IMG/VR virus record: IMGVR_UViG_2529293142_000017
Location: 1 to 19,557 of that record
Origin: a virus
Lineage: Duplodnaviria; Heunggongvirae; Uroviricota; Caudoviricetes
Reading direction: 5' to 3' (one strand)
Length of the DNA stretch: 19,557 nt
The position numbers and the translations under genes are program-made. Under the pieces are notes generated by a model. It saw nothing but the letters and a program-made list of their open reading frames with translations, made no database searches and was not told where the DNA came from. Below, piece by piece: positions 2,050 through 19,557 of this stretch (its first letter is position 1; every line of letters starts with the position of its first letter).

Positions 2050-2084
2050 TGATGCCCGCTCTGCAAAAAGTCCCTTTTTCTGGC

Positions 2085-2177: not shown

Positions 2178-2199
2178 GACGCGCCATGCGTCTTTTTTT
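2178..2199 (+). terminator. Small intrinsic-terminator-like hairpin within the leader
   Basis: GACGC-GCCAT-GCGTC stem-loop followed by T7 (2193-2199), about 70 nt downstream of the candidate promoter. Confidence 0.35.
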
Positions 2200-2645: not shown

Positions 2646-2925
2646 TAAAAAAGCCCCTCAGACCGTCTCAGCGCGTCATGACGCCCGTGAACACCTCAGC
2701 ATTGAGGCTTACCATAAGCTCAACCGCGCCAGCGCCGTATCCCAGTTTGTTGGGGGTGATTTGATTCACCGTGAACTCTCCGGCCTGCATCAGCTCTACA
2801 TTCCGCATATTTTCAGCTACCTGAATGAAGATATTGATTTTGTGCTGAATGAGCTGAAAGCCAAAGGCCTGTGCCGCGATTTTCTCGCCCAGCAGAAAGA
2901 CCGGGGAGACAGGACGCATGTTTGA
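2638..2925 (+). CDS. Hypothetical small protein (95 aa); candidate epsilon-like derepression protein by position and size only
   Basis: GGAGG RBS (2626-2630) 7 nt before GTG 2638. Lies in the same operon ahead of alpha. No motif recognised. Confidence 0.5.
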
Positions 2926-3331
2926 TTTTCCCCAGCCCGGTGAGATTTACCGTTCTGCCGGTTTTCCCGATGTGGCCGTGGTCGGCATTCTGGAAGACGG
3001 TATTCCGTGGGAAATGCCGTACCGCTGCCCGGACATTGTCTGGAACCCGTACCGCCGTAAATTCAGTATCCTTGTGCGTATCCTCGCTGACGGGCGCACC
3101 ACAGACATCCCGCTGGGGCGTTTTCTGCGGGAATTTACCTGTGACCGTCCTGACCTGTTTAAACGCAGCCCCGTAAACCGGCATGCGGTACTGAAAGAAA
3201 TGGCCGGAGACCCGGAATTACAGAAATGGCGGGAGAAATATCTGGATATTTACCCGCAGGCCCCCTGTTCCGGTCAGCCGGGCGGCACCGGTGGCGCGGG
3301 AATGGCGGGAAATTCCCCGCACGGAGCCTGA
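2918..3331 (+). CDS. Hypothetical protein (137 aa), P4-type left-operon gene
   Basis: GGGGAG RBS about 9 nt before ATG 2918. Start overlaps the previous stop. Codon usage matches the neighbouring GC-rich genes. Confidence 0.55.
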
Positions 3332-3510
3332 CCCGGAAATCACCCCGGATAACAGTTACCGCAATTATCTGTAAATTAAAAAACGACCCCCGAAAAATTA
3401 AATGTGCGTATTCGCGCAGGGATACGCACGTCTTCAGGAGACGCAGATATGCCTTATCAGTTAATGCAACCGGCACGGAATGCAGTCATCTGTCACAGGG
3501 AGGAAAACAA

Positions 3511-3831
3511 ATGAAAACACCCTTACCGCCCGTCTTACGCGCTGCCCTTTACCGTCGCGCTGTCGCCTGTGCCTGGCTGACCGTGTGCGAACGTCAGCAC
3601 CGCTACCCGCATCTCACCCTTGAGTCACTGGAGGCGGCCATCGCCGCTGAGCTGGAAGGCTTTTATCTGCGCCAGCACGGTGAGGAAAAAGGGCGTCAGA
3701 TAGCCTGTGCCCTGCTGGAAGATTTAATGGAATCCGGCCCCCTGAAGGCCGCGCCGTCGCTGTCCTTTCTCGGGCTGGTTGTGATGGATGAACTCTGTGC
3801 CCGTCACATAAAAGCGCCGGTACTGCACTGA
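3511..3831 (+). CDS. Hypothetical protein (106 aa) immediately upstream of alpha
   Basis: AGGGAGG RBS (3497-3503) 7 nt before ATG 3511. Stop lies 14 nt before the alpha start. It is the in-frame 3' part of the 3226-3831 ORF. Confidence 0.6.
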
Positions 3832-3845
3832 AGGAGAACAACACC

Positions 3846-6179: not shown

Positions 6180-6195
6180 CCCTCATGACTCATCT

Positions 6196-6219
6196 GACCG
6201 GCATCTGCCGGTCTTTTTT
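6196..6219 (+). terminator. Rho-independent terminator after alpha
   Basis: GACCGG-CATCTG-CCGGTC hairpin followed by T6, 17 nt after the alpha stop. Confidence 0.6.
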
Positions 6220-6238
6220 ATCCCTGAATTCCCCGAAG

Positions 6239-6536
6239 GTGAACAATCCACTGTTCACCCTTCACCGTGTATTCACCCGTTATCACACTGAAATTAAAAG
6301 AGAAAAACGAAAGGTGAACAGTGTGAACAATCAAATCAAAAAAAACTTTTTTTTCTCCCTGTGTGATTTCAGTACGGGGGATTAATCACCGGTATGAGTC
6401 ACACCGGCAGAATGCCGGAGGTGAAGAATCGAATGTTCACCCTTCACCCATTATTCACCACCTATCATACTGAAATAAAAGGAGAAAAAGAAAGGTGAAC
6501 AGTGTGAACAGTTCTTCCGAAAAAAATTTTTTCTTA
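6239..6536. repeat. Two ~120-bp direct repeats, each with several TGTTCACC/GGTGAACA iterons (crr-like cis replication region)
   Basis: Copy A is about 6239-6358 and copy B about 6420-6536, roughly 60 bp apart and about 85 percent identical by eye. Each holds GGTGAACA, TGTTCACC, TTCACC and TATTCACC variants plus GGTGAACAGTGTGAACA, and each ends in an A-run/T-run tract (A8-C-T8 and A7-T6). Confidence 0.7.
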
Positions 6537-6651
6537 CTTTTAATTGTGTAAAAAACAGGCGATGCGCGCAGTGTGTATAGATATGTGTATAGTTATATTT
6601 TTTGAATATAATAATATCTTATAAATCAATGCTTTAACTTGCAATATTCAT

Positions 6652-6669
6652 TCCTATTATCGGCACCAT
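6652..6669 (+). repeat. Attachment-site core copy (left): 18 bp identical to 19004-19021, with the form of a tRNA 3' end
   Basis: TCCTATTATCGGCACCAT reads as T-stem 3' half, acceptor 3' half, discriminator A and CCA. No D arm or anticodon arm lies upstream, so it is a partial tRNA copy. It sits about 115 bp after the crr-like repeats. Confidence 0.7.
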
Positions 6670-7274
6670 CAAGAAAATCAATAACTTAGCTTAACTTCTC
6701 TAAGAAATTGTATCTTCTGTTATCACTTACAAACGCCTATACGTTGTTATGGGCTTTGGTAGTGTAACACGTATGGGCGAGTAGTTCCCAAGCTCAACCT
6801 CGTAACAAGTTCCTTTGAAGCTGGAAGACGTGCCACCGTCTCTAAACCTTCTACCAAAACTCTTAGCAAGATGTTCCACACCTGGCGCGGTGTCCAATGA
6901 TGCTACACGTCGTGAGACGTTGCAGAGGATAAACAGGCTAAATGATGGGAAGAGTTTTAAGTGCAATAGTGGATTAAAGCCCACCTCTTCAAAACCTAAC
7001 TTGATCGGGAAAGAATCAAGCTCTAGCACGGTTTCGTCCACCGGAGTACAACGGGTGCCTGATAAGAGAAGAACTGCTAAGACTTCATAGCTTTTGTGAA
7101 AAAGCCCTTTTTAGTGGATACGCCTACGGCGCTTATTTTTTGGTATAACCATCAAAGGCGCTTTATGGCTTCTATTGTCTTGAAAATGTATCTTTACTTG
7201 TATTGTGTTTTATGCGTAGTCTCCCTGTGTAGTATGTAACTTGTTAATTTTCATATGAATACAGAGGCAACACG

Positions 7275-7433
7275 ATGAAAAACATTGCAGCTATAAAACG
7301 TAATAACCGCAAGATTCACGCTCGTAAGTTCCTGTCTACGCCAGAAGGAAAAGCCTGGTTAGAGCGTAAACAGAGAGAGAACGAAGAAAGAAAACTCCTT
7401 AGTGAGTTGAAATGGCTTAGAGAGGATTTCTGA
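7275..7433 (+). CDS. Possible small basic protein (52 aa), not in the supplied ORF track
   Basis: AGAGG 7 nt before ATG 7275. Encodes MKNIAAIKRNNRKIHARKFLSTPEGKAWLERKQRENEERKLLSELKWLREDF, a charged helical peptide. Too short for compositional support. Confidence 0.3.
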   Translation: MKNIAAIKRNNRKIHARKFLSTPEGKAWLERKQRENEERKLLSELKWLREDF

Positions 7434-7700
7434 AAATCTCCAGAACGCAACAGGACGCATTCTAACGCTGTTTTCATTGCTTGATATAGGGATGTATAGG
7501 TGGTGTGTGTTTAATGCGTCTGTGAGCTTGTTTTGTGCCTTATTTTGCATTTTCATAATGCAGAAGAGAACACGGAAAGCCTTAAAATTAATTATTTGGG
7601 TATTTAAGGCTATTTTCAGGTTATTTAAGGGTATTAAACTTGATTTAATTGGTTGAAATATAAACAGATAGTTCTGTATCTTATTGATTTATAAGGTTAT

Positions 7701-7780
7701 TTTTAAATAAAGGTAAATAAAAAATAAATAGCCATAAATAGCTATAAATACATCTAAATACCTATAAATCCCTTTGAATA
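7701..7780. repeat. Eight tandem 10-bp units ending in ATAAATA (helically phased A/T repeat)
   Basis: ttttaaataa, aggtaaataa, aaaataaata, gccataaata, gctataaata, catctaaata, cctataaatc, cctttgaata. The exact 10-bp period predicts intrinsically bent DNA. Confidence 0.6.
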
Positions 7781-7884
7781 CATATGAAGCCCTTCCCTTA
7801 TGGCTAGATTGCGAGAGGTGCTTAACGCGATTTTCAGCGCCCCCCGATCTGGAAAATCCAGAATCCCCAAATATCAAGGAGGCA

Positions 7885-8424
7885 TTACGCCTCCTCTTCT
7901 TCCTTCTTAATTCGCTGTACCGTCGAAGGAGCAACATTAAAGATCTCGGCGGTTTTACGCACTGACAGGCCATCAGAAAGGGCTTTCTTTATACCTTCTC
8001 TATCTACTGCTTTTCCATTACCACGCTTTGTAGGATTGACGGCTTGCGCTTCTCGTTTACGTTCTAACATCAGTTCACGTTCACACGTTGCCACTGCCGA
8101 CAACATAGTAAGCATCATTTTTCCCATCGCGCTTGTAATGTCAGCAATGATCCCTTCTTTGTGAAATCGAACAATTACACCACGATTATTAAGCTCTTCC
8201 ACTAAAGCAAGAATGTCTAAGGTGTTACGCCCTAAACGGTCGAGAGAGTGCACGTGTAAGGTGTCGCCTTCTCTCAGATAGGATAAACACGCCTGCAATC
8301 CTGGACGGTTAGTGTCTTTACCTGACAGCTTATCTTCAAAGACTTTATCAAGCGTTACTCCTGCAAGCTGGCGATCAGTGTTCTGATCTACAGTGCTCAC
8401 ACGCTTATAACCGATATTGCTCAT
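7885..8424 (-). CDS. Serine recombinase of the resolvase/DNA-invertase family (179 aa)
   Basis: N-terminal GYKRVSTVDQNTDRQ catalytic-serine motif, internal SLDRLGRN, and C-terminal HTH (TAEIFNVAPSTVQRIKK). AAGAGG RBS before ATG at 8424. Confidence 0.9.
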   Translation of the reverse strand: MSNIGYKRVSTVDQNTDRQLAGVTLDKVFEDKLSGKDTNRPGLQACLSYLREGDTLHVHSLDRLGRNTLDILALVEELNNRGVIVRFHKEGIIADITSAMGKMMLTMLSAVATCERELMLERKREAQAVNPTKRGNGKAVDREGIKKALSDGLSVRKTAEIFNVAPSTVQRIKKEEEEA

Positions 8425-8439
8425 AAAATCCTCTTAATG

Positions 8440-8560
8440 TATCGATTTGGCACTACTTCAATGCAAATGAGTATATCGTATTCATTTGGTCTGTTTCAAG
8501 CCTTATAGGTACGGAATATTACACGATTTAGCTGTATTCATTTGGTATGCCTAATGGATA
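8440..8560. promoter_or_regulatory. Candidate recombinase target or regulatory region with TTTGG-type repeats
   Basis: Direct repeats GTATTCATTTGGT at 8478 and 8535, and imperfect palindromes ATTTGGCA-N-TGCAAAT (8446-8470) and ATTTGGCA-N25-TGCCAAAT (8621-8661), immediately upstream of the recombinase start, where res or inversion sites usually lie. Confidence 0.25.
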
Positions 8561-8994
8561 CACAGGGGAATAGATTAAATGGTGTTCTGTTTATACAGGT
8601 TTATTTGTTAGATCAACAATTTGGCATTTCTAAACAGATGTTTGAACGTTGCCAAATGTCTTGACAACACAAGAAAAGGGCTTGCTATGCCACGCATTAC
8701 ACGAAATAAGGCTGTAAAAACAAAATAAATTTTAAAATTTGCACAAACGAGAAAACTCATTCGACAAATAATAGATTAATTTTTAGCCAACAATTTCTGA
8801 TGGTGCTCTGTAAGCCGCATTACACAAGGCTTTGCGAAAGTGATGTAAAAGTGAAGAAAGTTAACATTGCTCTTTTAAGCTACTTTTTCATTGAATTTTT
8901 AGTATGGAATTACACAGGAATAAGTTAGGGATATTCTATGATTTACACAGGGAATATAGGGGGATTATGGCACACACATAGAAAGGCATTACAC
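8518..8994 (+). repeat. Dispersed direct repeats of ATTACACAGG(A)ATA-type motif, at least 6 copies
   Basis: ATTACAC at 8518, 8696, 8819, 8909 and 8988, TTTACAC at 8942, plus ATACACAGGGGAATAG at 8558. Inverted copies (GTGTAATT) at 9476, 9530 and 9581. AATTACAC-N12-GTGTAATT forms a perfect inverted pair at 9510-9537. Confidence 0.5.
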
Positions 8995-9256
8995 AGAGTG
9001 AGTGCTATGTGACAAATGGATGTAACGAGAGGTTACATTCAGCTATCTGAAATGCTCTTTGTAAGAAAGTTGGTAGTAACGGTAGGTCATAGTGAGCTAG
9101 GGGGTAGGTCACTGTGAACTACAATAAGACTATTAATAAAACTATATTAGATTATTAATTAGATCATAATAATAATATTCTTTATATCTATATATATATG
9201 ATCTTTTGCCTTCCGGCGTTAGCTTCACTCTCTGGCAAGCAACCTTACTCCGCTAC

Positions 9257-9352
9257 CTTTCGGGCTTCGTGGCTGGCCCGTTCCGCTCACACCGAAAGCA
9301 AAGCGTTACTTTCTTCGTGTAACTATCGTTGGCGGTAACGCCCACGAAGAAA
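9257..9352. other. GC-richer island of interleaved inverted repeats inside AT-rich non-coding DNA
   Basis: CTTTCGG (9257) pairs with CCGAAAG (9292); GCGTTAC (9303) with GTAACGC (9335); TTTCTTCGTG (9310) with CACGAAGAAA (9343). The last two pairs cross each other, giving a pseudoknot-like or alternative-hairpin topology. Confidence 0.4.
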
Positions 9353-9631
9353 TACTATTGCGCTGTGCGCAGTAAGAGTAATCACCTAACCAATCATACT
9401 GATTGCTTACGTGTTAACTCTCTCTAACTCTTAATTACCCTCCTACATTTAATAACTCTGTTATTCTCTGTAGTTGTGTAATTACTCGAAGAGAGAGCGG
9501 CTAAAGCTCAATTACACTCTGCTTTCCTCGTGTAATTTCACTAAGCCTCAATACAATTTCACTTCCTACATTCTGTAGTCGTGTAATTGTTTTCGGTGGA
9601 AAAGCCAGAGGCGACACCGAAAGAGAATTCT

Positions 9632-9695
9632 GATCTTATTAATCTTATCTATCTTAGTTAATCTTCTTACTTATCTTACTTAATCTTTATCTACT
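9632..9695. repeat. Phased ATCTTA repeats (about 7 copies, 9-10 bp period) starting with a GATC 13-mer-like element
   Basis: GATCTTATTAATC at 9632-9644 resembles the oriC-type 13-mer class (GATCT + AT-rich), followed by aatcttatct, atcttagtta, atcttcttac, ttatcttact, taatctttat. Confidence 0.45.
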
Positions 9696-10223
9696 TTATT
9701 ATTAATAATAGCTTTATAAGCTCTCTGTAGCTCTCTGACGCAAGAAACAGCATTCAGGAAGGGAATCACCTTAGAAAAGTGTTCTTTGCGTCATAATGTG
9801 TTTTATGAAGGATTCAGAGGTGTTTCATAACAGGAATGTATAGAGGATACGTTAGGTAATTAAAAATAAGGGGTCTAAATGCTTCTCTAACAGCATTAAG
9901 CAGGGTAGGGAATGGAAACGCATTGCCTACATATATAATCTCACTACAGAGCTTTACAGAGCGTTTTATAAAGTGACTCTCTATCTTATATCTACCATCA
10001 CCTTTTTATATACCTAACAAATACCAAATAAGCCCCTTAAATAAGCCTCTGGCGAGCTAAACAGCCATTACATAAGGGAATGTATTGCTTTTATCAAAAC
10101 TTCGTTAGAACGCGTTTTAGAGCGTTTTAGACAATAATGAAGAATAGCACTACACAGAAGAGCACGAATTGCTAAGAAAAAATGTAAGTGCATGAAAAAG
10201 ATCAGATTTTTTGTGAAAAGGTA

Positions 10224-10252
10224 TTGACAAATGTTTCTTTATATGTAATAAT
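10224..10252 (+). promoter_or_regulatory. Candidate sigma70 promoter for the plus-strand small-gene operon
   Basis: TTGACA (10224-10229), 16-17 bp spacer, TAATAAT (10246-10252), about 110 bp upstream of the first gene. Confidence 0.5.
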
Positions 10253-10361
10253 AGGTATTAGAGGGACAGAAAAACATTCTTCTCTAAATAATCAAAATCA
10301 ATGCACTTTGAAGCCGTCAGGCTTGCAAGGTGTTTTTCTTTTAACTGAATAAGGAGTTTTT

Positions 10362-10550
10362 ATGAAATGGTTTACACCGAAACACGTCGTCGAGGCATTT
10401 AAAAAAGGTGAGCTAACACGCCACCAGGTAGTAATGAACCGTAATATGGCAAGGAGTCGAGGTTATCCAGAGCGAGCAGCTTGCTTCAATGAAGCACTCA
10501 AGATTATTGATGAACTAAGAAAAAATGAAAAAGAATCTGAAACAGAGTAA
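10362..10550 (+). CDS. Hypothetical small protein (62 aa)
   Basis: AAGGAG RBS 5 nt before ATG. First gene after the promoter. Basic and helical. Confidence 0.5.
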   Translation: MKWFTPKHVVEAFKKGELTRHQVVMNRNMARSRGYPERAACFNEALKIIDELRKNEKESETE

Positions 10551-10569
10551 AGAATAGAAGGAGAAAACT

Positions 10570-10740
10570 ATGAGCGAAACTACAGAAAAGAAAAGACAAC
10601 CACGCACTTGCTTTCATATTCCTGATGAAGTATTTCAGGTGTTGTTTAAAGAAGCCAGAAGTAGACGTATCACTGTTACAGATTACATTCTTGATATGTT
10701 GAAAAGAGAGGCTGAAACACTCTCAAATAAAAGCAAGTGA
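10570..10740 (+). CDS. Probable ribbon-helix-helix (Arc/MetJ/CopG-like) DNA-binding protein (56 aa), not in the ORF track
   Basis: AAGGAG RBS 7 nt before ATG 10570. RTCFHIPDEVFQVLFKEARSRRITVTDYILDMLKRE fits a beta-strand plus two helices. Confidence 0.5.
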   Translation: MSETTEKKRQPRTCFHIPDEVFQVLFKEARSRRITVTDYILDMLKREAETLSNKSK

Positions 10741-10793
10741 TTTTTATCACCATAGTAGCGCCGTAGAGCGTGATTACATCAAGGAGATTTTTA

Positions 10794-11483
10794 ATGATTA
10801 ACCAACTAACTTTTACAAAACACTATGACACGTTTGATAATGTATCAAAGATTTATTCTGATAAATTCCCTCAAGGAAAAGATTTAGATCTATTACATAT
10901 TGTGCTTTATTTTCGATTCCTTAGTTATCAGGAAAACAACCTTAATTGTTATGAAAGTCACGAAACATTAGCTAAGATTTTTAAGTCTTCAGCGTCAACA
11001 ATTAAACGTAAGATAAACGATCTTAAAGAGATGGGATTATTAGAAACATCCCCACATCCTGATCCGTATATTTCATCTTTGATTTACAATGCTCTCCCTC
11101 TCACAGATGCACATATTACTCCCCCAGGAGAATCATCACTCTCTGATCTTTCTGAGGCAGCAGAAGCACAGGAACAACCTAAAGGCCATAAACAGCCTTC
11201 TTTTGATGTTCTTGATGATTGGGATGCGCCTTTGCCGTGGGAGACGGAAGAAACACCTGTTTCATCAAGTGAAAAGGTAGCTAATGATAATGAGGAGGAT
11301 GTGTTAGAGAATTTTGCCTCTCTTATCTGCCAGCAGAAACACACCAGAACAGGAGGGGCATCATTTATAGAATTTGCAAATTCACTAGCTTATAGACACG
11401 GGCTAAAACGACCAAATGGTATTGAGGCATATTTTTCTAAGAATTACCCAAATGTGTATGATGACTTTGATATTCCATTTTAA
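10794..11483 (+). CDS. Winged-helix DNA-binding protein with acidic C-terminal region (229 aa); candidate replication initiator or regulator
   Basis: AAGGAG RBS 7 nt before ATG 10794 (the track's upstream GTG start would cover the RBS). HTH-like segment ESHETLAKIFKSSASTIKRKINDLKEMGLLE. Acidic Ser/Glu-rich C-terminal half. Confidence 0.7.
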   Translation: MINQLTFTKHYDTFDNVSKIYSDKFPQGKDLDLLHIVLYFRFLSYQENNLNCYESHETLAKIFKSSASTIKRKINDLKEMGLLETSPHPDPYISSLIYNALPLTDAHITPPGESSLSDLSEAAEAQEQPKGHKQPSFDVLDDWDAPLPWETEETPVSSSEKVANDNEEDVLENFASLICQQKHTRTGGASFIEFANSLAYRHGLKRPNGIEAYFSKNYPNVYDDFDIPF

Positions 11484-11494
11484 TAAGGAGGGTT

Positions 11495-11773
11495 ATGATT
11501 CAATATTTAGTAAAAAATCAAGTAGACAGAATTCAGTGTAATGACACAGGAAAACGCATCTACGAAACACTTGCTTACCTCTATAAAGGAAAGCCAACAC
11601 CGCTAAAATATAGCGATGTGTTACATCGAGCAGGGTGCTCTGAAGATGGTTTAAAATTCTGGCTGAAACAGCTATCAAATTTCGGTGTTATAGAGATTAA
11701 AGAATTATCTTTCTCTACATTCAATCTCAAAAGACTGGATAAAGAAATAGTATTCATCTATTCCACTCTCTAA
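11495..11773 (+). CDS. Hypothetical protein (92 aa), possible small HTH protein
   Basis: AGGAGGG RBS directly upstream, 11 nt after the previous stop. The YSDVLHRAGCSEDGLKFWLKQLSNFGVIEI segment looks HTH-like. Confidence 0.6.
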   Translation: MIQYLVKNQVDRIQCNDTGKRIYETLAYLYKGKPTPLKYSDVLHRAGCSEDGLKFWLKQLSNFGVIEIKELSFSTFNLKRLDKEIVFIYSTL

Positions 11774-11905
11774 AATCTCTCTATGTAATTAAAATATAAA
11801 AGGAAAACATTATTATGATAGTAGCTATGTATTGGTTATTGTTCTTTCTCACGTTAGAAACATATTTCGGGGTGTTTTCCTTTAAAAGAAAAGGAAAAGT
11901 AAATA

Positions 11906-12313
11906 ATGGCAAAAAGAAAAAACAACGTTGTTAAGAAAATCGGTGATTCAGCTTCTCTTCTAAGTAAACCTAAATCTATTCTAAGACGTAAAGACTTTAA
12001 AGAGCTAGTTACGCTCTCCAAGCAAAATAGCGCCCCTGGCGAATGGAAAACAGAGATCATAGAACATTCTCCCTCTGTGCCTTGTGGAGATGAATTTAAC
12101 GCCTTACAAGAAATCTTATCTTCAACACCTGGCGTATTCTGGAAACCTAGAAAAAGAAAAGAGTATATTGTTGATAGCTCTGATTTACGCAAATACCAGA
12201 TTTTAGGATTTGAAGACTATAACCACTACGTTGGTTATCTCGCCACCAATGGCCTAAATAATTTAGTTCCTGAATTCCATTTAGATAATGATGATCACTA
12301 TGGAGACTTTTAA
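11906..12313 (+). CDS. Hypothetical protein (135 aa)
   Basis: AAAGGAAAAG RBS region before ATG. Basic N-terminus (MAKRKNNVVKK). Same strand and codon style as neighbours. Confidence 0.6.
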   Translation: MAKRKNNVVKKIGDSASLLSKPKSILRRKDFKELVTLSKQNSAPGEWKTEIIEHSPSVPCGDEFNALQEILSSTPGVFWKPRKRKEYIVDSSDLRKYQILGFEDYNHYVGYLATNGLNNLVPEFHLDNDDHYGDF

Positions 12314-12314
12314 T

Positions 12315-12653
12315 ATGAACAAAAACACGTATGATACAATTTACTCACTAATTAATTATTATGAGGATGATTACCTCCTGCCTTTAAACCGCGCTGAACT
12401 TGAAGCATATAAAGAAAATACACCATCGGCACTAAATGAGGCGTTTAAACACTGGGATCTAGCTGTGAATGCCTTGGAGCACCTCTTTAAGCGTGTAGAG
12501 ATGCTCTGTAAGCGCGAAAACGCATATCTGACAGCGGATCAGATATGGGAGCTATCAAACTGGATAGAAGATATTGAATCTGATGTTCGCTATGTGGGAG
12601 ATGGCCTTATCGAACTCGCACAACGCTTAGGCGCTGCTATCACAGAAGAATAA
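12315..12653 (+). CDS. Hypothetical protein (112 aa)
   Basis: GGAG 9 nt before ATG 12315, which lies 1 nt after the previous stop. The track's earlier start (12288) overlaps the upstream gene and has no RBS. Confidence 0.6.
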   Translation: MNKNTYDTIYSLINYYEDDYLLPLNRAELEAYKENTPSALNEAFKHWDLAVNALEHLFKRVEMLCKRENAYLTADQIWELSNWIEDIESDVRYVGDGLIELAQRLGAAITEE

Positions 12654-12682
12654 AAAAAGCAACAAAAAAGTTGTAAAATATC

Positions 12683-12711
12683 TTGACATTTCATATATTG
12701 TATGTTAATAT
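12683..12711 (+). promoter_or_regulatory. Near-consensus sigma70 promoter (TTGACA-N17-TAATAT)
   Basis: Hexamers at 12683-12688 and 12706-12711 in the intergenic gap after the 112-aa gene. Confidence 0.55.
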
Positions 12712-12909
12712 AATTATATGGGGTGATTATTTTTCCTTTATTGGTTCGATATTAAAAATTCTTCTTGTCGTTAAAGGGGAGTAAAATCTCCGCTCCCCGC
12801 TTCTCCTCCTTAAGTAAATACTGTGTCATTATTACCTCTTTTTTCCTTTGTTATGCATACATCTTGGAGTATGCATAACATAGGGTAATTACATAGGTAC
12901 AAGTTAATA

Positions 12910-12941
12910 AAAGGCGGCTCTAAATGCTGCCTTTTATTTTG
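12910..12941 (+). terminator. Intrinsic-terminator-like hairpin ending a ~200-nt ORF-free leader
   Basis: AAAGGCGGC-TCTAAAT-GCTGCCTTT (9-bp stem with one G-T) followed by TATTTTG. Lies between the strong promoter and the next gene start at 13003. Confidence 0.5.
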
Positions 12942-13002
12942 CCCGTTATGCAACTTAAAAGTTGTATTTCTTACTTTAAACAAGGTAACAAGGTTTATAT
13001 AA

Positions 13003-13215
13003 ATGTTGTTTTTAAACGATAAAGAGCAAATCATCAAGTATAAAGATGAAATGCTGAAAATTAATCCACAAATTACCGAAATGGTAGCTAAATACGCTGG
13101 GTGTTCTGTCGAGGAAGTAGAAAGATGTGTTGAAAAATATTTTTCTCCTTCTTCTCCGTCTACACCTTCCCTTAATGAATTAATCAAATTAAAAGCTAAG
13201 GAGATTACTAAATGA
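13003..13215 (+). CDS. Hypothetical small protein (70 aa)
   Basis: Weak RBS (AAGG about 12 nt upstream). Stop overlaps the next start (ATGA). Confidence 0.45.
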   Translation: MLFLNDKEQIIKYKDEMLKINPQITEMVAKYAGCSVEEVERCVEKYFSPSSPSTPSLNELIKLKAKEITK

Positions 13216-13574
13216 TTATTGATTTAGACACTCTATTTCCAGTTCGAAAGACTTTCACAGATATTGTAAGTTATTGTACTGATCCGTTTGCCTCTGTAGA
13301 AAGCAAGGTTTTTGCTTCTCTTCCTGCTGATGTTGAATGCGGAGACTTGATCACCAGCACTGGCGCTAAATATGAATCAGGAGATGATATCTATGTTGTT
13401 ATGAGTGAATTTTTAACGGCTGGAGAAAATAAGCCTGTAGATGTTTTACGTAGCAATGCTGGCCTTGTCTGCATCAAATCTGATGCGCTGAATGCTGTAA
13501 GTGAAGCAGCAAAAACAGCATTAATTAAAAAAGGCTTCCAGCTTGAAGGGTTCCATTCTGTTTTCACTTCTTAA
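13212..13574 (+). CDS. Hypothetical protein (120 aa)
   Basis: AAGGAG RBS 8 nt before ATG, overlapping the previous stop. Acidic protein. Confidence 0.6.
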   Translation: MIIDLDTLFPVRKTFTDIVSYCTDPFASVESKVFASLPADVECGDLITSTGAKYESGDDIYVVMSEFLTAGENKPVDVLRSNAGLVCIKSDALNAVSEAAKTALIKKGFQLEGFHSVFTS

Positions 13575-13592
13575 TAAAAGGAATAATAATAA

Positions 13593-14621
13593 ATGATTTT
13601 AGGTAATGATTACGTTGATTTAGCTCCTCTGTTCTCTGCGCATAGCACTAGAAACTATCTGCTTTCTACTCTTGATTTTACGGATTCTGTAGGGGTTACA
13701 TCTCATAAAGTAGCTGTTTCCCAGCTTGTCGAAAGCAACGAATCTCTGTTCAACAAAGAAACCTCTCGTTTCTCTTCTGAACACAACGTTACTAAGCGTG
13801 AACAAGGCAAAGAATATCTTATCGAAATCCCGTACTTTTTAAGGCAAGACCTGATCAAACCGCAGGACGTGCAAGGCAAGCGTAAGCCTGGCACTGATTT
13901 TCAGGAAACACTCACTGATATCTATGCTGACTATGTTGCTAAACACCACGTAGCGTATCAGCGCACTAAAGAAAGCGTATTGGCTGCTTCTTTGTTTAGT
14001 GGTCGCACCTATACCCCGAAAACTGACGATGTTCTTATCGAGTGGGGCAAGCTGTTTAACGTATCAGCTATGAAAGCCACTGTGAACGCTTCCAGCACTG
14101 ACACCACGAAGATTTTTAAAGAATTTGATCAGATTGCTACGAATATTATCGACAGAGCACAAAGCCAGGCGGCTGCTGTAGAAAGAATTGTTGTTTTCTG
14201 TAAACCTGACGCCTTCTCTGCAATTCGATTCTCTGCTGGTATGGCAAACGCATTCCAGTATGTAAGCCCACTGGAAGAGGGGAATGTTGTGTATCAGCGT
14301 CGTGACCTGCTGCCAGGGGTGACAGCGTTCACTATCCCAGGAACTAACATTGATGTTGTTAAACTGGTAGATCCGCTACACCTTGCACATATGACCGCAG
14401 ACGCTGTAGCTGTTCCGAAGTTTGCTAAAGGCTCTAATGTATATCAGAACATCTACGGGGCTGCTTCCAGCACCTTTGAACTGATTAATGCCGCTCCTGC
14501 TGAGGTGTACAGCTATAGCTATGAATCTTCTCGTGGTGATGCTGTTAACGTTGTTACAGAGAATAGCCAGATGGTGGTAAACCACGGCGTTGGCTTCTCT
14601 GTTCAAATCACTGTTAAATAA
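13593..14621 (+). CDS. Hypothetical protein (342 aa) with virion-structural-like composition; candidate major structural protein
   Basis: RBS-like AAAGGAA before ATG. Rich in Ala/Ser/Thr/Val/Asn with no Cys-rich or nucleotide-binding motifs. Followed by a strong terminator, as is common after highly expressed structural genes. No family recognised from sequence. Confidence 0.8.
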   Translation: MILGNDYVDLAPLFSAHSTRNYLLSTLDFTDSVGVTSHKVAVSQLVESNESLFNKETSRFSSEHNVTKREQGKEYLIEIPYFLRQDLIKPQDVQGKRKPGTDFQETLTDIYADYVAKHHVAYQRTKESVLAASLFSGRTYTPKTDDVLIEWGKLFNVSAMKATVNASSTDTTKIFKEFDQIATNIIDRAQSQAAAVERIVVFCKPDAFSAIRFSAGMANAFQYVSPLEEGNVVYQRRDLLPGVTAFTIPGTNIDVVKLVDPLHLAHMTADAVAVPKFAKGSNVYQNIYGAASSTFELINAAPAEVYSYSYESSRGDAVNVVTENSQMVVNHGVGFSVQITVK

Positions 14622-14640
14622 CATTTTAACGTGTAATAGA

Positions 14641-14673
14641 GGCGTGGCGTGTATTCACGCTTCGCCTTTTTTT
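14641..14673 (+). terminator. Rho-independent terminator
   Basis: Nested GC stem (GGCG...GCGTG-TATT-CACGC...CGCC) followed by T7, 20 nt after the 342-aa gene stop. Confidence 0.65.
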
Positions 14674-14707
14674 ATTTATTTTTTAAATTTTGAGAGGTGA
14701 TTAAAAT

Positions 14708-14911
14708 ATGGAAGTGATTCTGAAATCAAAAAATGGTGTACACGTACATTTAGATGCTAATGATTCTAGAGGATTGTTAAATCTGAAATATCTATGTTCT
14801 CTCCTAGATGTTCCATATGAAGGAGTAAAAGCCCGTATGTTCAGACTAAACGAGAGTATTGATCAAGCTCTACACCATTTCTTAAGTAAAGAAGGTGGTA
14901 AAAATGATTAA
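14708..14911 (+). CDS. Hypothetical small protein (67 aa)
   Basis: GAGAGGTGA RBS 7 nt before ATG. First gene after the terminator. Confidence 0.5.
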   Translation: MEVILKSKNGVHVHLDANDSRGLLNLKYLCSLLDVPYEGVKARMFRLNESIDQALHHFLSKEGGKND

Positions 14912-14925
14912 TAAGGGGATTTTAA

Positions 14926-16755
14926 ATGTTAGAAATTAACACTTCTAAAATTAAGAACACAGTTACATTTAGTGTAGATAAAGACAGCTTGAAAAAAGCG
15001 AAAGACTCTATTACAGGCTTAAAGGAATTCGCAGAAAATATCAAGCCAGCTAAATTAAGGTTTGATAATGTCACTAAAGGCTATAAGAAAGCACAAAACG
15101 AAGTAGACAAGATTGCTCAACAGAAAGCCAAAACAGAAAAACAGAATCAAAGAGCACAAGCTGCCGCAGCAAGAGCACAGGCAAGGCAACAGGCACAAAT
15201 AGCAGCACGCAAGGAGAAAGCAGAATTAAAGCTCCTTGATGTGTCAAGCTCTATCAGTGCAATGCACCGTCTCTCTGTAGCTGAACAATACAAAGCTATT
15301 GCACAGGCTAGAGAGATAGCAAAACAATATGAGCAAGGGGCTATCTCGCTTGCACGTATGAATAGCCAGATGAAACGCCTACAACAGCAACAACGTAAGA
15401 TTAATGGCAACCGAAAAGCACAATTAGCCCCCGTTAAGGGAGGATCAGGGAATTCCGCCACTATGGGCGCTCTGTTATTTGGAGGCGCTACGGCTGCTGC
15501 TGGCGTGATGGCTGTTAGTAAAGCCTCTGAATTTATGGCTAATAGCTTCGCTAACGCAGAGACACAAGGAGAGCTAATTCAACGTGCAAGGCTTGGCGGT
15601 GTAGACGTTAACCAGATGTATAATATTACAGAATGGGCGTATAAAAACGGCGTTGACTCTATGATGGGTGATCAAGGGGCTAGAAAATACCTGGATCAGA
15701 TGAAAGATGTTAGGGAACGTGCCGCAAAATCCTACAGTGAAGCTGAATTGGTGAAAGATAAGAAAACCGGAAAATCTGAATGGAAAGGCGGTGATAACGC
15801 TATTAATGAACTTCTAAACATCGGTGTTATTAACAAAAGCGACCTTAAAAAATTTGCTGATAATCCAGCCGGATTAATTTCTAAGGCTGTTAATGGAATG
15901 ATGAAAAAAGGGTTTTCAGACTCCCAAATTGGACAACGTTTAGAAGACCTGGGCGATGATTTGATGCTTACGTCAAAATATTGGCAACGTTCCGTTAAAG
16001 ATGTACAAGAAAGTATTAATCAGCAAAAAGCCTCTGGAAAATGGCTAACAGAAACACAGCAAGAATCTATCGTTAAATTCAGAGAACTAAACAGACAGCT
16101 TTCACAGCTTTCTGATGCAAGACAAGTAGCATTTGTAGACGGCTTTATGAAATCTCTCGATCCAAAAGTAACGGAAGAGTTTTTGAAAAACCTTTCTAAT
16201 CTCACTCCGTATTTTACGAAGCTGGGAGAAGCTACAGGAAGTCTCTTTGAAGCTATTATGAAGATTGTAAACTGGTTTAATCGTAATGATGATAAGACAG
16301 ATGCTATTCAGAAAAATTTAGGTGATGCACCGCCTTTGAGTAATGAAGGGATGAAACAGCATCTTTCTAATCTCGTTCCTGACCAATATAAAGGCGCTGG
16401 CACTGCAACAACTACACCTGATAATAGTCATTCTCTCTTTAACACGATTAAGGGATTGCTTTTCGATGATAATTCTTCTGTGTCAGATGTAAAAATGTCA
16501 GTCAATGAAGCACCGATAACCAATCTCAAACAGGGTGCTTTAAATAATCTTGCAATGACAACTCCGGCTTATAATTTATCTCCTGTGTTTAATCTGAATC
16601 CGACCTTTGAAGTGGTAACAGAGGTTCCTCTTACTATTAATTCTGACACATCAAGATTAAGCGATTATGTGGATTTTACAGCGAGAGCAAGTCGGGATAG
16701 CTTCTTGAAATCATTAACATTAACCAGCTTATCAGGACAATCCAACGGCGGGTAA
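14926..16755 (+). CDS. Hypothetical protein (609 aa) resembling a tape-measure or pilot protein: basic Gln/Ala-rich coiled coil plus a Gly/Ala hydrophobic segment
   Basis: AAGGGG RBS 9 nt before ATG. Residues ~60-170 are Lys/Gln/Ala-rich helix (QKAKTEKQNQRAQAAAARAQARQQAQIAARKEKAE), followed by GALLFGGATAAAGVMAV. No signal peptide and no enzymatic motif recognised. Confidence 0.8.
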   Translation: MLEINTSKIKNTVTFSVDKDSLKKAKDSITGLKEFAENIKPAKLRFDNVTKGYKKAQNEVDKIAQQKAKTEKQNQRAQAAAARAQARQQAQIAARKEKAELKLLDVSSSISAMHRLSVAEQYKAIAQAREIAKQYEQGAISLARMNSQMKRLQQQQRKINGNRKAQLAPVKGGSGNSATMGALLFGGATAAAGVMAVSKASEFMANSFANAETQGELIQRARLGGVDVNQMYNITEWAYKNGVDSMMGDQGARKYLDQMKDVRERAAKSYSEAELVKDKKTGKSEWKGGDNAINELLNIGVINKSDLKKFADNPAGLISKAVNGMMKKGFSDSQIGQRLEDLGDDLMLTSKYWQRSVKDVQESINQQKASGKWLTETQQESIVKFRELNRQLSQLSDARQVAFVDGFMKSLDPKVTEEFLKNLSNLTPYFTKLGEATGSLFEAIMKIVNWFNRNDDKTDAIQKNLGDAPPLSNEGMKQHLSNLVPDQYKGAGTATTTPDNSHSLFNTIKGLLFDDNSSVSDVKMSVNEAPITNLKQGALNNLAMTTPAYNLSPVFNLNPTFEVVTEVPLTINSDTSRLSDYVDFTARASRDSFLKSLTLTSLSGQSNGG

Positions 16756-16786
16756 TTCCCGCCATAACATTACAAGGAAAATTATT

Positions 16787-17500
16787 ATGGCAACGGCGGG
16801 AATTTTAACCATACGATCAGCAAATACTCCAGAACAACACGTTCAGGCTGTTTACAAAGCAGAACAAGATATAAACTCTACAAAAAACGAAAATAGCAAA
16901 GCTAATAAAACAAAAGGAGAGAACGGATTTGCTATTGTTACCAGTGGACTGGCATCTTCTGGCAATGACGTTTATGAAAATTATATGGCACTGGCCTTTG
17001 ACAGTGTTGACGACGTGAACGTGAGACGTTCGGCAGATGTTACAAGCTACCCCGTAGAAAATGGTGCTACTGTGTCTGATCACGTTCAAATTAAAAACAA
17101 TAAATTTTCTCTTAAAGGAAGGATCACTGAAACACCGATTAAAAGCGATCCTGGCTTGTTAAAGAGTGCAGGGGTGAACGGGAACAGAAGATCATTAGCT
17201 ATCGACTACCTGAATCAGATTATGGACAGTAGACAGCCTTTTCTTCTTGTTACAGAAAATAAAACTTTTGAGAACGTTGTTTTAACAGGCATCGAATACA
17301 CAGAAGAGGCAAGCGAATCCCTGGTATTTGATCTTAGCTTTGAGCAGATCAGGCTCGTTTCGTATGGCACTGTAAACACTGTAGCTCTCAAAACACAGCC
17401 ATCTAAGAACATTGGGGCTAATATGAAAAAACGTGTTAACACTGAAAAATCAAGTAGTGAAGGTGAAGACACTATTACTCCTGCCTTTAAACAGGAATAG
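16787..17500 (+). CDS. Hypothetical protein (237 aa), structural-like, co-transcribed with the 609-aa gene
   Basis: AAGGA RBS about 9 nt before ATG, 31 nt after the previous stop. Beta-rich composition (VTSYPVENGATVSDHVQIKNNKFSLKGRITETPI). Confidence 0.8.
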   Translation: MATAGILTIRSANTPEQHVQAVYKAEQDINSTKNENSKANKTKGENGFAIVTSGLASSGNDVYENYMALAFDSVDDVNVRRSADVTSYPVENGATVSDHVQIKNNKFSLKGRITETPIKSDPGLLKSAGVNGNRRSLAIDYLNQIMDSRQPFLLVTENKTFENVVLTGIEYTEEASESLVFDLSFEQIRLVSYGTVNTVALKTQPSKNIGANMKKRVNTEKSSSEGEDTITPAFKQE

Positions 17501-17542
17501 CTGTAAATGCCTCTAAAACGCTCTGTAACGATGTAATTATAA

Positions 17543-17573
17543 AAGAGGCTACCAATCTATGTTGAAGCCTCTT
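17543..17573. terminator. Hairpin between convergent genes (possible bidirectional terminator)
   Basis: AAGAGGC-N17-GCCTCTT with flanking A/T, between the 237-aa gene stop (17500) and the integrase stop (17582). Confidence 0.45.
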
Positions 17574-17581
17574 TATTGCGT

Positions 17582-18946
17582 CTATGGCGTTGTTTTACGC
17601 CTTAAATTTGATTTTTTATTGATTGATAAGCCTTTCTCTATTTCAGGGTAGCGTAGAAGCTCAATATATTTTTTAAGCTCTACTGGAGAAGCTGCATTCT
17701 TGCTATATGTGCGGAATGTCTCTGTATTACCGCGTGTATGGCCCAGGAGAAGGGCGATCCTGTCTTCTGGAATTTGATTTCGATCAAGAAGCTGTGCTAC
17801 TCCGTGTCTCAGAGAATGAAACACCTTCCTTTCTGTTCCCTTTTCCCCTAAAGCCTTTCGTTTAGCTCTTGTAAATCTCTGCGTGTGCCACGTGGAACGT
17901 TTACCATCAGCACGCTCTGTAATGCTGGCGTGATAGAACAAAAAGCCATTGTGAGGCTTTTCACGAAGAGATAACACCAATGGAGTGATAAGGCTATGCA
18001 CAGGCACAAGACGTGCCGCAGCTTTCGTTTTTCCCTGTGTGATTTCAAAACACAGCACACCTTCGATCTCTTTCACATCGTCTATTGTGAGACTTGCTAT
18101 CTCATTGATCCGCATACCTGTATAAGCACCGATAAGACACAAAGCCATCATTTCTTTGTTTTCTGCTGAATTACCGGAAAATACTTGCAACACTTGCAAT
18201 AGCTCTTTGTTAGAAAATGCCTCATAGCTCTCTCTACTTTGTGCCACATCAAGCCTATGCCCTCGCCAGGGGGAGAGCGCCCTTTCTGGCGCATCGTGGT
18301 AACGTGATGAAGCTAACTCCCATAGCTGGGCCATTGGGCTGATATAATTTGCAATTGATTGTTGTGAAAGGGTTTTTTGCATGTGTTCAATCCAGCCTGT
18401 AACAGTGGTGCGGCTCACATCTTGCAATGCAATATCAGGCTTTTTACGGTAGGAGAGAAACATCTCTACCGCTTTTCTTGCCTTAGCTAAAGTGGCTGGC
18501 TTCTTCTTCGTGCTGTTAATTGTCAGGTAGATTTCAAGAATTTTAAGCAATGACGGACACGAAGACGCTGTATCTTGCACTCTGGTAGCTGTTTTGGCGT
18601 ATTTAGCCTTACTGCGTAACAGTTCCAGCGTGTTCTCTATTGTGCTGTTTACAGGAGCGACACTCTCCCGTAAACAATGGTATTCATCTGCAATCTGATC
18701 ACGCTTTCTACGTGCAACACGAAGATTACTTGTGTGTAGACTTCTGACAAACGTCCTTTTTCCTTCAAAAAAGGGCTGCATATACACAGGCAACGTGATC
18801 CTCAAATAGTAGTTACCGTAAGAATCACAGATTATGTATTGATTGGGCTTGTATCTCATAAACTCCCCGGCTAAAGTGTCGGAGCGTTTGTAATGTGAAA
18901 ATTGATTGTAACGCATAGAAAATGATAATTTTTCTATAAGATTCAA
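17582..18946 (-). CDS. Tyrosine recombinase / integrase of the P4 type
   Basis: C-terminal catalytic region with HSLRHGVAQLL and LLGHTRGNTETFRTYSK (R-H-R-Y architecture), and an N-terminal arm-binding-like domain. The track start is TTG at 18946; ATG at 18859 with a GGGGAG RBS is a more likely start (about 425 aa). Reads away from the adjacent att core. Confidence 0.9.
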   Translation of the reverse strand: MNLIEKLSFSMRYNQFSHYKRSDTLAGEFMRYKPNQYIICDSYGNYYLRITLPVYMQPFFEGKRTFVRSLHTSNLRVARRKRDQIADEYHCLRESVAPVNSTIENTLELLRSKAKYAKTATRVQDTASSCPSLLKILEIYLTINSTKKKPATLAKARKAVEMFLSYRKKPDIALQDVSRTTVTGWIEHMQKTLSQQSIANYISPMAQLWELASSRYHDAPERALSPWRGHRLDVAQSRESYEAFSNKELLQVLQVFSGNSAENKEMMALCLIGAYTGMRINEIASLTIDDVKEIEGVLCFEITQGKTKAAARLVPVHSLITPLVLSLREKPHNGFLFYHASITERADGKRSTWHTQRFTRAKRKALGEKGTERKVFHSLRHGVAQLLDRNQIPEDRIALLLGHTRGNTETFRTYSKNAASPVELKKYIELLRYPEIEKGLSINKKSNLRRKTTP

Positions 18947-19003
18947 TCAATTAGTAATGGTCGTAGGTGATGGCATTAACACGAGATTAATCGAGTGTTT
19001 TAC

Positions 19004-19021
19004 TCCTATTATCGGCACCAT
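19004..19021 (+). repeat. Attachment-site core copy (right): 18 bp identical to 6652-6669
   Basis: TCCTATTATCGGCACCAT, then AAAATCAA shared with the left copy after a 1-3 nt difference. A 10-mer GGTCGTAGGT resembling a tRNA T-arm lies 35 bp upstream (18959-18968). Confidence 0.7.
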
Positions 19022-19146
19022 TAAAATCAAAGAGTTACCCCATATTTAAATACACCACGTTTCCTCCTGTGCCGCATTTGTGCCATTGTAACCTTGGCAA
19101 TTCATCAAAATACTGTTCTGACATCAGGCAGTGCAGGTGCAGCTAT

Positions 19147-19557
19147 TTAAACCAATTGCTGCCGCCATTCTTTGACGTAGTCAATCAGGGCGCGGAGCTT
19201 TGGTGCAATATTGCGACGCTGTGGGAAATACAGATAGAAGCCCGGAAATTGTGGAAGAAAGTCATCAAGCAGCGATACAAGCTTACCGCTTTCAATATAT
19301 GGCCTGAAAGTTTCCTGAGTGGCAATTGTTATTCCTCCGCCGGCAAGAGCCAGCCTCAACATCAGACGCAGATCATTAGTCGTAATCTGCGGTTCAATCG
19401 CAAGGTCGAAAGTTCTCCCGTTTTCTTCAAATGGCCAGCGATAAGGCGCAACCTCCGGGGACTGACGCCAGCCGATACACTTATGGGTATTTCCCCCGGA
19501 GGCGAGAAAGCGCTCTCCACGCCCGGCCGCAAGGATCAGGACGACGGGGGCAGGCAT
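19147..19557 (-). CDS. LysR-family transcriptional regulator, C-terminal effector-binding domain only (chromosomal flank)
   Basis: 136 aa matching the LysR substrate-binding-domain pattern (LILAAGRGERFLA...LRLMLRLALAGGGITI...YLYFPQRR). No N-terminal HTH is present. The window ends exactly at an ATG, so this is either truncated by the window edge or a short or pseudogene form. Confidence 0.75.
   Translation of the reverse strand: MPAPVVLILAAGRGERFLASGGNTHKCIGWRQSPEVAPYRWPFEENGRTFDLAIEPQITTNDLRLMLRLALAGGGITIATQETFRPYIESGKLVSLLDDFLPQFPGFYLYFPQRRNIAPKLRALIDYVKEWRQQLV

Follow-up and report, generated by a model that had tools for sequence, protein, structure and literature searches.

How does a handful of phage structural genes come to stand beside an integrase, with hardly any of the other parts of a virion around them? 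The question is raised by positions 13003–17500 of the IMG/VR record IMGVR_UViG_2529293142_000017 (Duplodnaviria; Heunggongvirae; Uroviricota; Caudoviricetes), of which we analysed positions 1 to 19,557; this whole stretch of 19,557 nucleotides is called the window below. A preliminary description of the region had offered three explanations, a decayed prophage remnant, a satellite-borne module that co-opts helper particles and an unrecognised defence or exclusion system, and it is the second of these that our results favour. The genes belong to a 12.33-kb element, window 6670–19003, which is probably an integrative satellite of virulent phi92/phAPEC8-like myoviruses (Stephanstirmvirinae, with genomes of ~148 kb and T=13 capsids). 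Judged by sequence, the element has only four or five structural genes, and these are the counterparts of phi92 gp124, gp134, gp135 and, with a question mark, gp123.

The region in question holds six open reading frames (ORFs), arranged in two operons with the following signals:

13003–13215, plus strand: ORF of 70 amino acids (aa), opening the capsid operon
13212–13574, plus strand: ORF of 120 aa, probable capsid cement or decoration protein, by position and size
13593–14621, plus strand: ORF of 342 aa, almost certainly the major capsid protein (MCP), HK97 fold, lambda-E family
14639–14672, plus strand: strong intrinsic terminator 3' of the 342-aa gene, ending the capsid operon
14708–14911, plus strand: ORF of 67 aa with a helix-turn-helix (HTH)-like pattern, possible regulator
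14926–16755, plus strand: ORF of 609 aa, almost certainly the tape measure protein (TMP)
16787–17500, plus strand: ORF of 237 aa, almost certainly the tail tube initiator, a Dit-like baseplate protein
17544–17577: hairpin and T-run between the convergent 237-aa gene and integrase gene, read from the sequence

The preliminary description had taken these ORFs to be real genes with strong ribosome-binding sites and two terminators, and this was borne out at nearly every point: both terminators were found, and Shine–Dalgarno sequences are clear before five of the six ORFs (AAGGAG, AAGGAA, GAGAGGTG, AAGGGG and CAAGGAAA), that of the 70-aa ORF being weak. The RefSeq annotation of Escherichia coli 20KM2762, which is 100% identical across the stretch, has the same six coding sequences; it already labels the MCP, but neither the TMP nor the entire element. 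Since the pN/pS ratios (Nei–Gojobori) lie at 0.03–0.25 for all six genes in every scorable pair, and the genes are intact in most of 11 related loci that we compared (loci are numbered with the prefix L below), all six are under purifying selection and are working genes. The 70-aa protein has no significant match in Pfam, PHROG, NCBIfam or PADLOC, and its homologues in L016, L024, L026, L027 and L029 are 44–48% identical, with pN/pS of 0–0.25.

The 342-aa product can be assigned with near certainty as a major capsid protein of the lambda-E/HK97 type. It matches the Pfam family PF03864 (Phage_cap_E) at 52.4 bits, against a gathering cut-off of 22.9, and the match is full length, residues 18–341 corresponding to profile positions 13–329 of 329; a further match is to phrog_29, 'major head protein'. 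A profile of its family finds Phi92_gp124 as the best sequence with a solved structure in the Protein Data Bank (E value 8e-20, full length), and the protein is 22% identical, over its full length, to the MCP of phage vB-Eco-KMB37 (KMB37 below). The predicted structure (AlphaFold2, AF2) has a mean confidence (pLDDT) of only 57 and served just as a check that its neighbours in fold are MCPs of myophages; the top Foldseek matches were the proteins of PhiTE, Bas63, the ICP1 coat in PLE capsids and Sf14. Two statements of the preliminary description have to be given up here, that the region has no capsid gene and that none of its proteins carries a recognisable motif, the latter also because the 237-aa protein matches the Pfam family Dit_like. 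The 120-aa gene lies directly upstream of the MCP gene, as does phi92 gp123 (130 aa), and its product is probably the cement protein. This assignment draws on position, size and a transitive match: the distant family members P0166 and P0167 match phrog_2680, 'head decoration', which is the PHROG of the phi92-type cement protein. The 120-aa protein itself has no direct match in the libraries, hhalign and hmmsearch comparisons with the phi92-type cement protein were not significant, and its AF2 model, built from 28 homologues, has a pLDDT of 40 and is unusable.

The second operon encodes parts of a tail. The 609-aa protein, whose coiled-coil and Gly/Ala-rich hydrophobic pattern had led the preliminary description to think of a tape measure, is with near certainty just that, a phi92 gp134-like TMP going by its homologies: it matches phrog_16051 at 3.3e-53, and its family matches Phi92_gp134 with an E value of 9.3e-39. 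Compared with the TMP of KMB37, residues 1–66 are 53% and residues 173–609 are 28% identical, and, at 609 aa, the protein falls ~50 aa short of the helper-type TMP (659 aa); across the element family, TMPs measure 609–620 aa, against 659 aa in the phage. Its gene stands directly upstream of that for the 237-aa protein, in the same order as in KMB37. The latter protein hits Pfam PF21821 (Dit_like) at 101.9 bits (3e-29; gathering cut-off 24.2) and Phi92_gp135 with an E value of 2e-78, the tube initiators of PhiTE and Pam3 matching too, and is 61% identical over 205 aa to its counterpart in the Justusliebigvirus KMB37, so a tail tube initiator, or Dit-like baseplate protein, is the near-certain assignment. 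The initiator gene is missing from L004, L016, L026, L027 and L029 and is thus an accessory gene of the element family. For the 67-aa protein, a role as a tail chaperone was considered and dropped: BLAST matches neither it nor the 70-aa protein to the phage's 75-aa gene, no match was obtained in Pfam, PHROG, NCBIfam or PADLOC, and the family alignment has the look of an HTH protein.

Among phages, the TMP and the initiator match only Stephanstirmvirinae, at both the DNA and the protein level; the members concerned, Justusliebigvirus (phi92-like) and Phapecoctavirus (phAPEC8-like), are virulent myoviruses of ~145–150 kb. The likeness extends to the layout. In KMB37, the order is a decoration protein of 130 aa, an MCP of 333 aa, other genes, a 75-aa gene, a TMP of 659 aa and a tube initiator of 236 aa; in the window, it is 120 aa, 342 aa, terminator, 67 aa, 609 aa and 237 aa, and the phage also has a terminator 3' of its MCP gene. 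The module thus mirrors the gene order of a phi92-type myovirus (cement and MCP, then small ORF, TMP and initiator) and not, as had been proposed, that of a siphovirus tail module. Both the order and the sizes of phi92 gp123–gp124 and gp134–gp135 agree with those in the element, and the MCP, TMP and tube initiator are demonstrably homologous to those of phi92. There, the products of these genes make up a T=13 shell with cement trimers, a trimeric TMP and a hexameric tube initiator (PMC13450770). On the other hand, phi92 has ~240 further genes that the element lacks and, because identities to phi92-type proteins are only 22–61%, the element does not represent a piece recently derived from such a phage. 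Phages and elements both occur in Escherichia, Klebsiella, Citrobacter and Serratia, and no integrase annotation was found in the inspected parts of the nearest phage genomes.

As an aside on these relatives, several GenBank records labelled 'Campylobacter phage' (A150, A145, C3 and A110a, ~146 kb) match the TMP, the initiator and the terminal-repeat site described below in the manner of an Escherichia Justusliebigvirus, and we suspect that their host labels are wrong.

What the structural genes belong to becomes clear from the flanking sequence. They are part of a discrete mobile element at the tRNA-Thr gene thrW, with boundaries that are near certain: two att cores enclose 12,334 bp, and the window aligns to strain 20KM2762 from position 6652 on, which in that genome is the 3' end of thrW. 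The left core parts the element from a P4-like element to its left, and the GC content falls from ~60% to ~38% at ~6.2–6.6 kb. Besides the structural operons, the element comprises the following:

6652–6669, plus strand: left att core, TCCTATTATCGGCACCAT, 18 bp, a copy of the 3' end of thrW
7803–7881, minus strand: copy of a terminal-repeat boundary with the invariant cores GTGCTTAACG and CCCCAAATATC, candidate site for recognition or cleavage by a helper terminase
7885–8424, minus strand: small serine recombinase (resolvase/DNA invertase; Pfam Resolvase 7e-34, phrog_125 2e-55)
8425–10360: ORF-free region of 1.9 kb with no ORF of at least 50 aa, presumed iteron origin
10362–10740, plus strand: two small genes (62 aa and 56 aa), presumed regulators, conserved in family members
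10753–10801, plus strand: leader and start codon of the Rep-like gene, 94% identical to a gene leader of Phapecoctavirus Mt1B1_P17
10770–11483, plus strand: Rep-like winged-helix gene (replication-initiator O/DnaD-type HTH), RefSeq start at 10794
11495–12653, plus strand: three conserved genes of 92, 135 and 121/112 aa without assigned function
17582–18946, minus strand: tyrosine integrase (DUF6538, SAM-like and catalytic domains), RefSeq product of 425 aa
19004–19021, plus strand: right att core, the same 18 bp (20 bp when compared with the tRNA), just beyond the integrase

From left to right, the element thus consists of a short left arm, a phage-like site, the serine recombinase, the ORF-free stretch, two regulator-like genes, the Rep-like gene, three unknown genes, the two structural operons and the tyrosine integrase (Pfam Phage_integrase 6.5e-17, phrog_1 2e-32), at which it ends, as the preliminary description had said. 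Equally in line with that description, genes for a portal, terminase, protease, sheath, tube, fibre or lysis did not turn up when all ORFs of the element were scanned with Pfam and PHROG profiles. With att repeats, an integrase, a Rep-like protein, an iteron region and an incomplete set of virion genes, the element has the features by which phage satellites are recognised.

Its replication genes point the same way. The Rep-like protein matches Pfam HTH_36 (2.9e-5) and phrog_270, replication initiation protein (2.8e-9), and the ORF-free region upstream is probably an iteron origin of replication, going by its repeats: the heptamer TTACACR, found 13 times in the window where 4.2 are expected, occurs six times on the plus strand (8519–8995) and four times on the minus strand (9316–9586), in opposed arrays around AT-rich blocks (9120–9200 and 9630–9720). 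A GC-rich island lies at ~9200–9370. An ORF-free stretch of similar size lies at the same place in L003, L004 and L016, and all family members inspected have a comparable one. A long non-coding RNA encoded by the region is another possibility; Rfam has no match inside the element. Of the two small genes, that for the 56-aa protein encodes an Arc/ribbon-helix-helix-like pattern, with a weak match to the Arc-like phrog_582 (0.017). The serine recombinase, finally, is variable cargo that in other members is absent or replaced by a small tyrosine recombinase, as in L016, a metagenome contig.

A link to a helper is given by two short sequences in the non-structural half of the element, very strong matches that came out of a blastn search of that half against 50,697 phage records, and both to Stephanstirmvirinae. 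At the first, window 7803–7848 is identical in 44 of 46 positions (96%) to phi92 nucleotides 363–318. According to GenBank, the direct terminal repeat (DTR) of phi92 covers positions 1–343, and our check showed no difference between its two terminal copies in the record; the match therefore spans the inner DTR boundary, GGTGCT|TAACGCG. Among the 50,697 records, the site was found in 62, all of them Stephanstirmvirinae and each with a single copy, and where the numbering of a record starts from determined ends, it lies ~320–360 bp from the end. Three elements and four phages, when aligned, have two invariant cores, GTGCTTAACG and CCCAAATATC. The site is conserved in the diverged elements L003, L016, L024 and L028, and the cores are kept even though the MCPs of L016 and L024 are only 63% identical. 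As the element has no terminase, such a site is what one would expect of a satellite that borrows the packaging of its helper, in the way P4 does with the cos site of P2.

The second match is the leader of the Rep-like gene. Its counterpart in Mt1B1_P17 precedes a gene for a 328-aa double winged-helix protein, and the leader is also 88–98% identical in the phages muut and BI-EHEC, whereas the proteins themselves are only 26–32% identical. The leader may therefore be a shared cis-regulatory signal under helper control. No late-promoter motif common to phage and element is evident, and the promoters of both seem to be sigma-70-like.

Near these sites, we observed further repeats that could have a part in packaging. 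In phi92, CCCCTAAATATCC is found 13–25 nt outside the left DTR boundary and its inverted copy, GATATTTGAGGGGG, at 291–304, just inside the right boundary; the two could be paired half-sites of the terminase. The element has one exact CCCCAAATATC, at 7865–7875.

The compact unit is not confined to one strain. A conservation survey, which the preliminary description had called for, found it in hundreds of genomes and next to several integrases: of 5426 complete E. coli genomes, 239 contain 80% or more of the 12.3 kb, 287 have the 4.5-kb structural module covered to at least 80% and 772 show some match, which amounts to about 5–14% of these genomes. Strains 20KM2762, BEN2908 and NCTC10973 are among the carriers. 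Some copies carry insertion sequences (IS). Homologues of the MCP at 38–96% identity occur in Citrobacter, Klebsiella, Enterobacter, Cronobacter, Serratia, Sodalis, Dryocola, Kluyvera, Buttiauxella and Scandinavium; these loci keep the order 70 aa, 120 aa, MCP, 67 aa and TMP, with an integrase nearby in most, and the gene order of the element as such was found in Buttiauxella, Kluyvera, Scandinavium, Citrobacter and Enterobacter. Its parts, on the other hand, vary. At thrW of E. coli EC187792 (L003), the integrase is 98%, the TMP 64% and the initiator 59% identical to that of the window, while the capsid module (10107–11738 of that locus) cannot be aligned to it by BLAST and yet has the same layout, with proteins of 65, 127 and 343 aa, the last with a weak match to phrog_29 (1e-4); this suggests that the capsid genes are swapped as a whole module within the family. 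A tRNA-Gly gene is the site occupied in strain MJ-T (L004), where the integrase has 32% identity.

If the element is indeed a satellite, its life cycle may be pictured as follows. On infection by the helper, it would excise and replicate from its own iteron origin. The helper's terminase would cut or bind the mimicked repeat boundary and so package the element, a step ascribed to the helper because the element has neither terminase nor portal. The element's MCP and cement protein would build a small shell on the portal and scaffold of the helper, sized for ~12 kb, probably T=4 or smaller, and excluding the 148-kb helper genome; P4 packs its 11.6 kb into a T=4 capsid. The element's TMP, joined in some lineages by its initiator, would take the place of gp134 and gp135 and give rise to chimeric tails, shorter by ~6–8 nm if the difference in TMP length is converted at ~1.5–1.6 Å per residue. 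As a by-product, the yield of the helper would be reduced and the bacterial population protected. The gradient of identity to the phage proteins, from the initiator (61%) over the N-terminus (53%) and the rest of the TMP (28%) to the MCP (22%), fits such a chimeric particle, conservation being highest in the parts that would have to dock onto the helper, namely the initiator and the N-terminus of the TMP, and lowest in the shell protein, which interacts with itself. It is a tentative but serious possibility that we are dealing with a minimal satellite family, which would supply only the shell (MCP and cement) and the ruler of the tail (TMP, with or without initiator), borrow portal, scaffold, terminase, tube, sheath and fibres, and recruit the terminase with its mimic of the DTR boundary.

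Several observations sit less comfortably with a satellite of phi92-like phages. One is that an MCP only ~22% identical to that of the helper would have to assemble on the helper's portal and scaffold, with no portal or protease of its own; the cf-PICIs, capsid-forming satellites, carry those. A cement role is weakly supported for the 120-aa protein, and no tail chaperone is recognised in the element. The terminal-repeat site was not found in L004, L023, L026 or L029, the search for such a site in L004 yielding no match to a phage, and of the two DTR boundaries the element mimics a single one, blastn with word size 7 having failed to find the second (left) one in it; moreover, the view of the DTR boundary as the terminase target follows from the GenBank annotation and the example of other DTR phages. 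Lastly, the predicted attP junction has no exact match in metagenome or viral contigs, element-sized contigs lack terminal overlap and those with both att cores keep short sequences from outside. From their lengths and the matches that run from the element into the flank, the IMG/VR matches appear to be prophage-style calls from larger contigs and not particles from viromes.

This lack of a packaged form in public contigs would suit an island devoted mainly to interference, in which the diverged capsid, TMP and initiator act as dominant-negative decoys that poison the assembly of phi92-like phages, whether or not the DNA is packaged. Structural interference by satellites is well documented (PLE, and the Tai systems, PMC11364771), and the proteins are near enough to those of the helper to interact with its parts, notably the initiator (61%) and the TMP N-terminus (53%). 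A pure defence system would, however, need neither a copy of the helper's DTR boundary nor a replication module of Rep and iterons, and the spread of the unit over genera, integrases and att sites suggests efficient horizontal transfer; PADLOC models match neither the unknown ORFs nor the variants' cargo genes. We therefore consider interference as the main function unlikely, while noting that it is compatible with a satellite and does not exclude one. Less likely again is a satellite of another, unsampled phage lineage, possibly temperate, whose resemblance to phi92 reflects shared ancestry or gene exchange. The MCP, about equally far (22–25%) from phi92-like and from Pseudomonas Pakpuna-like MCPs, leaves room for this, as do the unalignable capsid module of L003 and the variants without a phi92-type site. 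Against it, the TMPs of all variants tested match the same PHROG and the same phage subfamily, the initiator is 61% identical to a Justusliebigvirus protein, and the cis-site, at 96% identity to Justusliebigvirus, is confined to Stephanstirmvirinae among all the phage records searched; such a helper strikes us as improbable.

A ~12-kb integrative element with an HK97-fold MCP of its own could also be taken for a reduced or atypical cf-PICI, all the more so as some published cf-PICIs are reported with putative tmp genes (PMC12987554, Extended Data Fig. 10). But the genes that define a cf-PICI, those for the portal, protease, head–tail connectors and small terminase, are missing here, no AlpA was recognised and the MCP is of the lambda-E/phi92 type, which makes this reading very improbable. 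There is least to be said for a decayed prophage whose structural genes were left by chance. The few structural genes beside an integrase and the IS insertions in some copies might be seen as signs of decay, and the preliminary description had held that high-identity matches to an intact prophage, with no conservation of the compact unit elsewhere, would make it an ordinary remnant. We found the reverse: the nearest relatives are virulent 148-kb phages at 22–61% amino acid identity, no intact prophage has high-identity matches, and the unit recurs in hundreds of genomes, and in several genera, with different integrases, its six genes under purifying selection and its att repeats intact. We see hardly any chance that the element is such a remnant.

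How would a satellite of phi92-like phages compare with the families already described? A close parallel is with the PLE satellites of ICP1, which have their own TMP, tail chaperone and hub, at 19–41% identity to the helper's, and produce chimeric tails 10 nm shorter than those of the helper, a manipulation of tails that, at the time, no other satellite family was said to share (PMC11838301, PMC12987554). PLE and the element are both small integrative parasites of a large virulent myovirus, a status that for the element is proposed from its genes; both have their own, shorter TMP (582 vs 677 aa in PLE and its helper; 609 vs 659 aa here), baseplate-core or tail proteins distantly similar to those of the helper (19–41% vs 28–61% identity) and a Rep protein with an iteron origin, the latter presumed in the element. 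The differences are as marked. PLE steals the coat of its helper and resizes it with the scaffold TcaP, whereas the element brings an MCP, and probably a cement protein, of its own; the integrase of PLE is a large serine recombinase, that of the element a tyrosine integrase acting at a tRNA gene; PLE has a tail chaperone and a hub, the element a tube initiator and no recognised chaperone; and the host of PLE is Vibrio (V. cholerae, with ICP1 as helper), whereas those of the element are Enterobacterales. No PLE protein has a BLAST or profile match to the element. Of the PLE hallmarks, the element has a TMP and a partner tail gene and lacks the serine integrase, TcaP and the specificity for Vibrio and ICP1.

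With the cf-PICIs, the element shares an MCP of its own and, if it is a satellite, small capsids and the use of helper tails, which in the element would be partly self-made; cf-PICIs carry the full set of TerS, portal, protease, MCP and connectors, the element only MCP and probable cement protein, to which it adds a helper-type terminal-repeat site and tail genes. P4-like satellites are of similar size (~11.6 kb vs 12.3 kb) and likewise sit at a tRNA gene. P4 copies the cos site of P2 and the element the termini signal of its proposed helper, neither having a terminase; P4, however, has no structural protein of capsid or tail and uses Sid and Psu to change the size of P2 capsids. In 6670–19003, there was no alpha primase, Sid, Psu, Delta or P2-type cos to be found, nor, as would be expected of a classical PICI or PICMI, any match to AlpA or TerS, and the element does have structural genes. 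By their defining tests, the element is set apart from P4-like satellites, classical PICIs, PICMIs, cf-PICIs and PLE; in its workings, it resembles a blend, with the own shell of a cf-PICI, the own tape measure and virulent myovirus helper of PLE and the borrowed packaging signal of P4. We found no description of it in the full-text literature, the coverage of which is incomplete, so that an earlier description is possible. We think it probable that the element represents a new satellite family, the satellite mechanism being inferred.

If the minimal satellite family pictured above is real, it would parasitise its helpers in a manner without precedent: virulent coliphages would have their first satellite, and self-made capsids would for the first time be paired with chimeric tails. 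The element would stand between the cf-PICIs, with their complete own heads, and PLE, with its own tape measure and stolen coat, and suggest that the part sets of satellites are more modular than the current families imply. There are practical sides to it as well. The Stephanstirmvirinae (phi92, phAPEC8, ESCO5/13) are virulent coliphages of broad host range that are frequently isolated with a view to treating encapsulated and avian-pathogenic E. coli, and a satellite that hijacks and probably inhibits them would be a natural resistance factor against a phage group in therapeutic use, an unrecognised determinant of phage susceptibility in the genomes that carry it and a vehicle of gene transfer. 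The E. coli system would, moreover, be a tractable one in which to study how a foreign MCP assembles on a helper portal and how the terminases of terminal-repeat phages choose their substrate.

Some further observations concern the surroundings of these genes. Upstream of the capsid operon lies a 350-bp non-coding gap (12654–13002) with a good sigma-70-like promoter at 12683–12711 (TTGACA-17-TAATAT, with TG) and a hairpin and T-run at ~12912–12940; it may encode a small RNA of ~220 nt. The block 7877–8551, which includes the serine recombinase gene, is missing from many metagenome variants, and other lineages have a FimB-sized tyrosine recombinase (~193 aa) in that position.

The left end of the window, 1–6651, is the right-hand part of a P4-like satellite, with an alpha primase-helicase at 3846–6179, the Rfam matches C4 antisense RNA (2306–2393), isrK (2121–2198) and c4-a1b1 (2108–2160) and, at ~6225–6330 and ~6415–6515, two direct repeats of ~100 bp, rich in TGTTCACC and similar to the P4 ori/crr. 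It stands in tandem between thrW and the element, two unrelated satellites thus sharing one attachment site. On the other side, the host flank (19147–19557, minus strand) holds a truncated pseudogene of a LysR-type regulator, followed in the reference strain by paoD–A, and the island occupies what we take to be the position of the CP4-6 prophage region at thrW of K-12.

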